A DNA stretch of 3,128 bases. It comes from Escherichia phage Mu. Numbering within the stretch: position 1 is the stretch's first letter; each line of letters starts with the position of its first letter. The translations under genes and the position numbers were made by a program. The stretch lies in sequence record AF466696.1. One strand, 5' to 3'. Below, in pieces: positions 1 through 3,128 of the stretch. The notes under the pieces are model-generated. The model did no database searches, was not told the origin of the DNA, and worked only from the letters and a program-made list of their open reading frames with translations.

Positions 1-40
1 TTATCCAAAACTCGGTTTACAGGAAACGGTAAATCAGGCT
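1..40. repeat. Left terminal inverted repeat; nt 1..25 is a Gin/Pin/Cin-type crossover site that is 1 bp short (TTATCCAAAAC-TC-GGTTTACAGGAA)
   Basis: Identical to the reverse complement of 3088..3128 except for one missing C in the outer half-site. The site has internal dyad symmetry (TTATCCAAAACC versus reverse complement TTCCTGTAAACC) around a central TC dinucleotide, as in hix/gix sites as I recall them. Confidence 0.85.
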
Positions 41-1019
41 AGGAACGCCGTGCAAAAGAATGGCGATACCTTGTCCGGTGGGCTTACTTTTGAAAACGAC
101 TCAATCCTTGCCTGGATTCGAAATACTGACTGGGCAAAGATTGGATTTAAAAATGATGCCGACAGCGACACTGATTCATACATGTGGTTTGAAACAGGCG
201 ACAACGGCAATGAATATTTCAAATGGAGAAGCAAACAAAGCACCACAACAAAAGACCTGATGAATCTTAAATGGGATGCTTTGTCTGTTCTTGTCAATGC
301 CATTGTAAATGGCGAAGTCATATCAAAATCAGCAAACGGCCTCCGTATTGCTTATGGTAATTACGGATTCTTTATTCGTAATGATGGTTCAAATACATAC
401 TTCATGTTGACAAACTCCGGTGACAACATGGGGACTTATAACGGATTAAGGCCATTATGGATTAATAACGCTACTGGCGCTGTTTCGATGGGGCGTGGTC
501 TCAATGTTTCAGGGGATACACTTTCACACCGTTTTGCTATTAACAGCAGTAATGGTATGTGGATTCAGATGCGCGATAACAACGCTATCTTTGGGAAAAA
601 TATAGTTAACACTGATAGCGCTCAGGCGTTGCTTCGCCAGAATCACGCCGACCGCAAATTTATGATTGGCGGTCTGGGAAATAAGCAATTTGGCATCTAC
701 ATGATTAATAACTCAAGGACAGCCAATGGCACCGATGGTCAGGCGTACATGGATAATAACGGAAACTGGTTATGCGGTGCTCAGGTCATTCCGGGAAATT
801 ACGCCAACTTTGACTCCCGCTACGTGCGTGACGTTCGGCTGGGAACTCAGTCACTGACTGGCGGCTTGTCTCGTGATTACAAGGCGACATCCGGTCATGT
901 TATTACAGGTTTTCATACCAATGGCGACTGGGAAATGCAGGGGAGGGGATGACAAAGTTTATATCCGTCCGGTTCAGAAGAATATCAATGGTACCTGGTA
1001 TAATGTAGCGAGCGCCTGA
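2..1019 (+). CDS. stf: Side tail fibre protein, variable C-terminal (receptor-binding) module A; 5'-partial (constant part lies upstream of the window), with an apparent frameshift near the 3' end
   Basis: The frame is open from nt 2 through the left crossover site ([33 protein letters not shown]...) to TGA 950..952, 317 codons; the ORF-track entry 50..952 is the GTG-initiated part of it. Composition is Gly/Asn/Thr/Ser-rich, typical of fibre distal domains. A conserved fibre tail [23 protein letters not shown] is encoded 948..1019 in another frame and ends 2 nt before the tfa ATG, so the body is cut off at 952. Confidence 0.8.
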
Positions 1020-1021
1020 TT

Positions 1022-1552
1022 ATGATGCATCTGAAAAACATTAAGTCAGAAAATCCAAAAACTAAAGAGCAATATCAGCTAACAAAGAATTTTGATGTTA
1101 TCTGGTTATGGTCCGAAGACGGGAAAAACTGGTATGAAGAAGTAAATAACTTTCAGGACGACACCATAAAGATTGTATGCCACGAAAATAATATTATTGT
1201 TGCCATAACCAAAGATGCCTCTACGCTTAATCCCGAAGGCTTTAGCGTCGTTGAAGATTCCAGATATAACAGCCAACCGCCGCGCTGATGATTCATGAAA
1301 GTAAATGTTTAATGATGGGAGCTGTAATTAAACGGATTTATACGGCAGACGAACAGCAACAACGAGCCGAATCACAAAAGGCCGCATTGCTTTCCGAAGC
1401 TGAATCAGTCATCCAGCCGCTGGAACGCGCTGTCAGGCTGAATATGGCGACGGATGAAGAACACGCACGACTGGGAGTCATGGGAACGCTACAGTGTTCT
1501 GGTCAGCCGTGTGGATACGGCAAATCCCGAATGGCCACAAAAGCCTGAATAA
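1022..1552 (+). pseudogene. tfa: Tail fibre assembly protein (Tfa/U family) A, apparently disrupted by three frame changes
   Basis: ORF 1022..1288 begins [24 protein letters not shown]...DGKNWYEE...NPEG, which resembles the Tfa N-terminus of E. coli cryptic prophages (TfaE-like, from memory). The middle of the protein (..[50 protein letters not shown]) is in the frame of ORF 1288..1548. The expected C-terminus [26 protein letters not shown] is back in the first frame and ends at TAA 1550..1552. Frame changes fall at about 1253..1261, 1288..1330 and 1471..1480. Confidence 0.75.
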
Positions 1553-1557
1553 AAATT

Positions 1558-1577
1558 AAGGCCCGATAGCGGGCCTT
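1558..1577. terminator. Probable bidirectional factor-independent terminator hairpin between the convergent tfa genes
   Basis: AAGGCCCG-ATAG-CGGGCCTT forms a perfect 8-bp stem with a 4-nt loop. On the - strand it is followed by a T-run (complement of AAAAATTAA at 1551..1559); on the + strand it is followed by a weaker CTCTCATTCT tract. It sits 5 nt after the tfa-A stop and 3 nt after the tfa-B stop. Confidence 0.5.
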
Positions 1578-1580
1578 CTC

Positions 1581-2112
1581 TCATTCTGGTTGTTCTGGAA
1601 ACGTTACTGGCAGGCTGGAGGTGTCTGTGGATTCGACCTTCTGCGCGTAGAACATCCACTCTGTTAATTTTTGTTTATTCTCGTCGGAAATGATGCCCAG
1701 CCGTAGCCTGTGAGTCCCATAGCTGTGTTTTATCCCTGACGAACTGTAGCAGGCTTTGCTTTTCATTTTCCGCTTGTTGCCTCTGCTCTTCCTCGGTATA
1801 AGTTCGCTTTATCACTACACCATCTTTGAAACATCCATTTACCCGAAATATCAGCCCGGCGATATTGCTGTAATATCAGGAAACCTCAACGACGTTTGCG
1901 CCTTCTGGATTAATTGCTGAAACATCCTTTTCAATACAAATAATAACGCCGTTGTGGTCAGACCATTTTCAACGTATCAAGCTGAAAGTTCTTTTGTTCC
2001 TCATACCAGTTTTTCCCATCCCCTGTATAAAGCCATTTGATGTTAAATTGTTTCGTTAGCTGGTATTGCTCTTTTGTTTTAAGGTTGCCAGCAGTAATAT
2101 TTTTTAAATCAT
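1581..2112 (-). pseudogene. tfa: Tail fibre assembly protein (Tfa/U family) B, disrupted by multiple small indels
   Basis: The ATG at 2112..2110 sits 2 nt after the stf-B stop but is followed immediately by an in-frame stop (ATG ATT TAA), consistent with 1 nt lost from an ATG CAT TTA AAA AAT start. Tfa segments are spread over several frames: [50 protein letters not shown] (ORF 1958..2185), then DHNGVIICIEKDVSAINPEGANVVEVS*, then FKDGVVIKRTYTEEEQRQQAENEKQSLLQFVRDKTQ, then RLGIISDENKQKLTEWMFYAQKVESTDTSSLPVTFPEQPE* (ORF 1581..1766). These are homologous to tfa-A on the + strand. Confidence 0.75.
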
Positions 2113-2114
2113 AA

Positions 2115-3126
2115 TTAAATACTCCCCGCGTTATACCACGTTCCATTAATGCAATACTGAATTGGCCTTGCCTGAATTGTATCAATTAATTCATCACGGT
2201 TTCCGTTACTGAACCCGTAACGACATAACCTGACCTGTCAGACCAGCCGGGACCATTCCATGTCTGAACAGATGACAGACCGCCAAGACGAATACCTGTA
2301 ATAAACCTTGAGTTACATTCTGCCTGCGTATATGCACCAACATCTCCCGCTGATGGCTTACGTGTTGTGGTGTAAATTTCTGACCAGTCAGCTTCGAATC
2401 CGTAACCATCACGCGCTGAACGATAAAAAATACCGCCGTTCCTGTAATTCACACGGCTGTACGGCAGGGCAACTCCCCGTATTCATATTGAAGTGGAGGA
2501 TTAATGTCGGCAGGGCAACTCCCCGTATTCATATTGAAGTGGAGGATTAATGTCGATGCGCCACCAATATTTGCGTTATAGACCCCGCTATTCCAGTTCC
2601 AGCCAACAGCTTTATCATTTCCGACAGTGCTTCCTGTTTGTCCTAAAGCAAATGCAGGCTGCTGGTTTTTCGTGTTGTAGTCTCGTCGCCAGCCAGGAGC
2701 ATAAGCATCACCATGATTAATATAAGTGAATTGAGCGTTAGTGATTCCGCCGCCGCTGGACGTACTCGGCGTAGTAACGCGTATGGTCATTGCGCCGCGA
2801 GTGCCAATAACTTCCACCACAGCACCTGCATGACAAATATTTCCGCAACCTGTATCTGTAATGACCTTATTGTTTGCATAAGCCCATGAGCCTTTGCACA
2901 TCCAGTAAGGATGGTTAAATGCCCCCTGACTCTCCAGCCACGAAATAAATTGTGCGGTTGTCCAGACCTGACTATCGCCACCAATATTCAGCCATGCGCT
3001 ATATGCGCGACAGGCCCCAATATTTTTGGTGAAGGTATCTTTTCCTGGAATATCTGCGCCGTTCTGGTTTTGCTGTAATGCGCCAGAAGCCTGATTTACC
3101 GTTTCCTGTAAACCGAGGTTTTGGAT
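2115..3126 (-). pseudogene. stf: Side tail fibre protein, variable C-terminal module B; 5'-partial on the - strand (would join the upstream constant part after inversion), disrupted by a 46-bp tandem duplication and frame changes
   Basis: On the - strand the frame is open from 3126 through the right crossover site ([81 protein letters not shown]..., continuing as ORF 2449..2901) to TGA at 2449..2451, 226 codons. Coding continues in a second frame as ORF 2186..2452 (NYRNGGIFYRSARDGYGFEADW...SGYVVTGSVTETVMN*). The conserved fibre tail ..[23 protein letters not shown] is in a third frame, ending with TAA at 2115..2117. Confidence 0.8.
2462..2555. repeat. Perfect direct tandem duplication, 2 x 46 bp (units 2464..2509 and 2510..2555) plus 2 flanking matching nt, inside stf-B
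   Basis: GCAGGGCAACTCCCCGTATTCATATTGAAGTGGAGGATTAATGTCG occurs twice back to back with 100% identity. On the - strand the two copies are read in different frames (..TLILHFNMNTGSCPA then DINPPLQYEYGELPC), and the frame stops at 2449 shortly after. Confidence 0.95.
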
Positions 3127-3128
3127 AA
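3088..3128. repeat. Right terminal inverted repeat; nt 3103..3128 is a full-length 26-bp crossover site (TTCCTGTAAACC-GA-GGTTTTGGATAA)
   Basis: Reverse complement is TTATCCAAAACCTCGGTTTACAGGAAACGGTAAATCAGGCT, matching nt 1..40 with one extra C. It shows the 12-2-12 half-site architecture typical of serine DNA invertase sites. Confidence 0.85.

Follow-up and report, generated by a model that had tools for sequence, protein, structure and literature searches.

The DNA analysed here (the window) is a stretch of 3,128 nucleotides from Escherichia phage Mu, record AF466696.1, read 5' to 3' on one strand. It corresponds to the whole invertible G segment of phage Mu, with genes S, U, U' and S' flanked by gix inverted repeats (Table 1). 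Alignment of all 3128 nt with the reference Mu genome (NC_000929/AF083977, 31954-35037) returned 98.6% identity at 100% coverage. The Mu annotation of the matching interval lists S (tail fibre), U (fibre assembly), U' and S', places the boundaries of the G segment within S and S', and starts gin approximately 55 nt past the right repeat, where the window ends. The window was compared with 5,426 complete genomes of E. coli, with 50,697 phage records and, by string scan, with metagenome contigs. Eleven of the complete E. coli genomes, including strains W and S17-1, carry Mu copies, again 98.6% identical to the window. An earlier reading made without database searches (the sequence-only reading) had described two tail-fibre genes, 'stf-A' and 'stf-B', and an assembly gene, 'tfa'; these are Mu S, S' and U, respectively. 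Its observations on the fibre and tfa genes were sound, and the identification of the locus as the Mu G segment itself lay beyond a reading of that kind.

The segment is about 3 kb long and is bounded by 34-bp inverted repeats with gix crossover sites. It holds the convergent pairs Sv-U and S'v-U', with S entering across the left repeat, and the reading frames are interrupted in the window. S is the tail-fibre protein made in the G(+) orientation, and the Gin-mediated switching between the fibre sets S/U and S'/U' is long established. The two repeats (7-40 and 3088-3121) are 97% complementary; at the very ends of the window the inverted repeat spans 34-40 nt and reads TTATCCAAAAC(C)TCGGTTTACAGGAAACGGTAAA. 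One C is missing from the left gix core, which reads AAAACTCGG, compared with AAAACCTCGG both in Mu and in the window's own right repeat; otherwise the ends match those of Mu. Without this C the crossover site would be damaged, and Sv would be out of frame with Sc at the segment boundary.

A separate observation concerns positions 31-40, where the window reads GTAAATCAGGCT, the same as the right-end repeat, and reference Mu reads GTAAACAGGGCT. The presence of GTAAATCAGGCT at the left end stretches the inverted repeat from 34 to approximately 40 nt and replaces N-R-A of S with N-Q-A. The two ends may have been confused in assembly, or a real conversion between the repeats may have occurred.

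Table 1. Features of the window, the G segment of phage Mu, with the basis of each assignment.
Feature	Position	Strand	Basis
Left gix inverted repeat (G-segment boundary), inside the S reading frame	1..40	+	Inverted repeat I2; Mu alignment and annotation
Variable part of Mu tail-fibre gene S (Sv), body up to premature TGA 950-952	1..952	+	ORF 50..952, 98.6% to Mu S
Frame-breaking insertion GGGGAGGGG, first run 4 G vs 3 in every other Mu copy	940..948	+	Pairwise alignment
Displaced C-terminal tail of S, conserved fibre tip region of all homologues	942..1019	+	Translation; PDB 5yvq_A residues 480-504
Tail-fibre assembly gene U, fragmented by private +1 insertions at 1254, 1317 and 1473	1022..1552	+	ORFs 1022..1288, 1288..1548, 1454..1552; Mu U alignment
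GC-rich hairpin AAGGCCCGCTATCGGGCCTT with A/T-run flanks, terminator-like, between convergent U and U'	1558..1577	.	Terminator scan
Tail-fibre assembly gene U', broken by +1 insertions at 1707, 1829, 1864 and 1881, a 2-nt deletion after 1959 and a 4-nt deletion after 2107	1581..2112	-	Alignment; Mu annotation
Variable part of alternative fibre gene S', broken by a 1-nt deletion after 2207, a 2-nt deletion after 2456 and a 46-nt duplication	2115..3128	-	Alignment
Right gix inverted repeat, identical to Mu	3088..3128	-	Inverted repeat I2; side-by-side comparison of ends

Within S, the long fibre ORF runs for 300 codons on the plus strand and ends ...GDWEMQGRG at the TGA, as had been read from the letters. 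The tail follows in the next frame (ORF 873..1019), with its TGA at 1017-1019 lying 2 nt before the ATG at 1022. The G-rich run that had been placed at 941-948 is indeed present but begins one base earlier, at 940. A single extra nucleotide in this run had been put forward as the cause of the break, and global alignment identified precisely that: the window has CAGGGGAGGGG at 940-948 where reference Mu has CAGGGAGGGG, an excess of exactly one G at 940-943 (GGGG as opposed to GGG), and deleting one G restores the full Mu S frame. The GGG of CAG-GGA-GGG-GAT is thus written as GGGG in the window, which shifts the frame into ...QGRG-stop and leaves the tail in the +1 frame. With the missing C in gix-L and the extra G, S is broken twice in the window and not once.

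The displaced tail was taken in the sequence-only reading to be real coding sequence. Following removal of one G it is identical to the tail of PDB 5yvq_A, and it is far from being a chance ORF. Over the last 93 residues of 5yvq_A, the repaired protein of the window shows a single change (Thr for Pro), and repaired S as a whole carries three residue changes relative to Mu S (505 codons including the stop), namely Phe to Leu (502), Asp to His (527) and Pro to Thr (887). Residues 28-138 of the repaired protein match the Pfam family PF21446 (Gp34_trimer). The chain deposited as 'Tail fiber protein S' in PDB entries 5YVQ and 9KI1 is 504 residues long and its C-terminus is this tail, 5YVQ being the complex of the Mu fibre S with the chaperone TfaMu. 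TfaMu attaches to the distal fibre and remains on the virion (PMC9608196, PMC7289586).

At position 887 of the window, the first base of an S codon, three alleles occur. The window has A (Thr), reference Mu and E. coli W have C (Pro), and S17-1 Mu shares T (Ser) with a metagenome contig (RRZU010886631.1). Across the whole G segment this position is the sole difference between S17-1 Mu and the reference. Situated near the receptor-binding end of the fibre, it may represent a genuine host-range polymorphism.

The extra G was found in the window only. The sequence GGGAGGGG is identical in reference Mu, S17-1 Mu, E. coli W Mu and the metagenome contig, and in 11 of the 11 E. coli genomes that contain the stretch, 165 nt were matched to the 166-nt query, one base shorter. 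The tract has 3 G in at least 15 independent copies and 4 G in the window alone. The G segment of E. coli W is 100% identical to reference Mu over 3084 nt, and that of the metagenome contig (5163-8246) matches Mu along its full length at 99.87% identity, with 4 substitutions and 0 gaps. An exact-string scan of metagenome contigs, with the reference string as its control, returned 0 matches to the extra-G string and 1 to the reference string; in viral_contigs and genome_contigs, exact-string scans recovered neither the extra-G string nor the reference string and so carry no weight here. Furthermore, the plasmid collection contained no close copy of the stretch, and the public gene index contained no exact match to the window's broken U fragment or to its S' fragment. 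As a side observation, the metagenome contig suggests that near-identical Mu circulates outside laboratory strains.

Among intact homologues, the tail is in frame with the fibre body in Mu, the E. coli W prophage, S17-1 Mu, SfMu, the P2-like phage NC_070904, D108 and P1. In SfMu, NC_070904, D108 and P1 the protein terminates ...RP(V/I)QK(N/Y)INGTWYNVA(S/Q)(A/V) followed by the stop, in the same frame as the body, and the tfa start codon lies within a few bases. A tblastn search with the repaired last 97 residues against all phage records returned 118 records, from which 60 rows were sampled evenly down the ranking; in 59 of the 59 uncut matches among these 60 rows, residue 94-97 was reached in a single in-frame piece. 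Intact fibres that end at the equivalent of ..MQGRG with no tail would have spoken against the earlier reading of the break, and there were none among the homologues examined. The window itself contains the C-terminus of a Tfa-dependent fibre, with RPxQ..INGTWYN at 966-1019 and the ATG of U at 1022, out of frame with the body.

The tail of the second fibre gene lies on the minus strand in the region of ~2115-2150. The homology of the S tail to this S' tail holds up, as does the statement that differences between the two copies fall mostly at third codon positions: this was the case for 4 of 4 differences in INGTWYN, all of them synonymous, and for 9 of 16 across the 14-codon RP..INGTWYN stretch. 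A point absent from the sequence-only reading is that the S' tail (2115-2230, minus strand) is likewise out of frame with its body. The S' body ends ...GYVVTGSVTETVMN and a stop, and the tail continues in another frame. This results from a private 1-nt deletion after 2207, whereby GTTAAC is written GTTAC, and is unrelated to the extra G.

The remaining genes are similarly affected. In U the three +1 insertions amount to a net +3, and the frame therefore returns at the end of the gene. In U' the 4-nt deletion falls just after the start codon and produces a stop two codons past the start. The duplication inside S' is an exact tandem copy of 46 nt (2462-2507 and 2508-2553), close to the 2-nt deletion after 2456; it is absent from other Mu copies and from relatives, and looks like a block that was entered twice. 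Between the convergent U and U', the annotation of D108 places rho-independent terminators on both strands at the position equivalent to the hairpin.

Taken together, the differences private to the window number 39, made up of 23 substitutions and 16 indel events. The indels comprise nine 1-nt insertions, six short deletions (1, 1, 2, 4, 1 and 2 nt) and the one exact 46-nt tandem duplication, and they interrupt S 2 times, the first of these within gix-L, U 3 times, U' 6 times and S' 3 times. Single-base insertions (9) outnumber deletions (6), the ratio of indels to substitutions is 16:23, and most of the 1-nt indels alter the homopolymer length of short runs. Four independent Mu copies (the reference, E. 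coli W, S17-1 RP4::Mu and RRZU010886631.1) stand only 0-4 substitutions apart from one another, with no indels, and share the window's indels and substitutions in no case. None of the window's indels occurs in D108, P1, P88 or SfMu, and these relatives agree with Mu at nearly all of the substituted positions. A few of the window's private states recur in them, namely the T at 989 in D108, P1, P88 and SfMu and the A at 887 in three of the four; 887 is C or T among the other Mu copies. Some of the differences may thus be genuine, and the sequenced template may have been a Mu isolate that departs a little from the others.

The substitutions have a direction of their own. At 11 of the 23 (956-2176), the window has A where Mu and its relatives have G, mostly right after an A, and the reverse occurs only twice. 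A one-strand bias of G to A is typical of a reading artefact.

We conclude that this version of the sequence contains an artefactual break at 950-952 and that the real S gene is uninterrupted, a reading to which we assign a probability of roughly 0.85. On this account the private differences would mostly have arisen as errors of base calling or of transcription when the sequence was determined at low accuracy. Insertions in short runs, strand-biased G-to-A changes and a perfect tandem repeat of a block argue for a sequence that was misread or mis-transcribed. We infer an error of the record, as opposed to a true mutation of the template. Biologically, the frame break is most likely not real, and is at most a private inactivating lesion of a known gene. 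A search of the literature available to the analysis found no report of errors in earlier G-segment sequences.

Damage that reaches all four genes together with the left recombination site is also what would be expected of a relic no longer under selection. Accordingly, an accurate sequence might have been obtained from a decayed or mutagenised copy of Mu, for example a defective prophage or an old clone kept in the laboratory, in which the four genes and gix-L are pseudogenes and the extra G is a real mutation of S. That one or two of the private substitutions correspond to states in related phages, and that 887 is truly polymorphic among Mu copies, would fit such an origin. In the decay of bacterial pseudogenes, however, substitutions far exceed indels and the bias is towards deletions. 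The window, conversely, has 16 indel events against just 23 substitutions in 3.1 kb, with single-base insertions dominant, and its substitutions are strongly strand-asymmetric, G being read as A in 11 of 23. Moreover, no copy of this kind was present among the 5,426 complete E. coli genomes, the 50,697 phage records or the metagenome scan, and Mu copies of very different origin are almost identical to one another. It is because of the homopolymer indels and the A-for-G substitutions (11 of 23) that we favour an error of reading or of the record over natural decay, which we consider unlikely. Were the lesion nonetheless true, it would amount to a plain inactivating mutation of a known gene.

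A functional break is far less probable still. In one form, S would contain a programmed +1 frameshift at GGA-UGA-C, with GGAGGGG serving as an internal Shine-Dalgarno stimulator on the pattern of prfB; in the other, the G-run would be a slipped-strand switch giving phase variation of fibre production. The site does resemble that of prfB in that the stop is UGA followed by C, directly after the SD-like purine-rich GGGGAGGGG, and in that the tail is reached by a +1 shift, the direction required. Recoding at this point would imply a junction peptide ..EMQGRGDKVYIR.. in the fibre. The prfB frameshift depends on a slippery P-site codon and an SD-like stimulator ~3 nt upstream. The window differs from prfB in that its P-site codon is not slippery, its spacing does not fit and conservation of the site is lacking: the P-site codon GGA is unable to re-pair in the +1 frame (GAU; tRNA-Gly), and the SD-like purine run abuts or overlaps the shift site rather than lying 3 nt upstream. 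Neither hallmark of a prfB-type site was found in S, that is, a frameshift conserved in homologues with the zero-frame stop retained, or a re-pairing P-site codon accompanied by a stimulator ~3 nt upstream. The other Mu copies and all homologues have a single ORF in which no shift is needed, and 15 other frame-breaking lesions in the same window are beyond rescue by recoding. Since the homologues are unshifted, the frameshift is not part of the design of the S gene.

Searches for RNA elements were negative. No Rfam family matches the window, and the RNA 3' of the shift site has no stable structure, folding worse than shuffled controls (z = +1.31). A programmed +1 frameshift was rejected on four grounds, namely the lack of conservation, of a slippery codon, of an Rfam family and of a stable downstream structure. 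Phase variation by slipped-strand mispairing was also rejected, the G tract being invariant at 3 G in at least 15 other copies. The long mononucleotide tract varying among isolates that characterises a contingency locus was not found here, and a tract of 4 G is too short for known slipped-strand switches. There is no evidence for recoding or phase variation in S. The most improbable reading of all is that the extra G is real and that GGGGAGGGG-A-UGA-C gives low-level +1 recoding, such that truncated and full-length S are both made, which if true would add control of the fibre at translation to the control by G inversion.

The significance of an artefactual break lies mainly in data quality. 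This version of the G segment is unfit for inferring pseudogenes, recoding or fibre truncation, and annotation pipelines run on it will yield fragmented calls for S, U, U' and S'. The fibre biology that it touches, including Gin switching and the conserved tip near the site of Tfa chaperone binding, was already known.

Comparison with known systems places the window firmly. It is unlike the Mu G segment in its 23 substitutions, 9 one-base insertions, 6 short deletions and 46-nt tandem duplication, and like it in gene order (S-U convergent with U'-S'), terminal inverted repeats and intergenic hairpin. Relative to Mu S in PDB 5YVQ (also 9KI1, and the S/S' chimera 8JU3), the protein of the window as written ends RG and lacks the last 23 residues. 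P1 and P7 (C segment, Cin), D108, SfMu, P88 and the P2 gene H family differ from the window in that their fibre genes are single-frame, and their identity over the last 97 residues is 60-65% or less. With these same phages the window shares the conserved C-terminal RP(V/I).. motif and a tfa/U start codon only a few bases further on.
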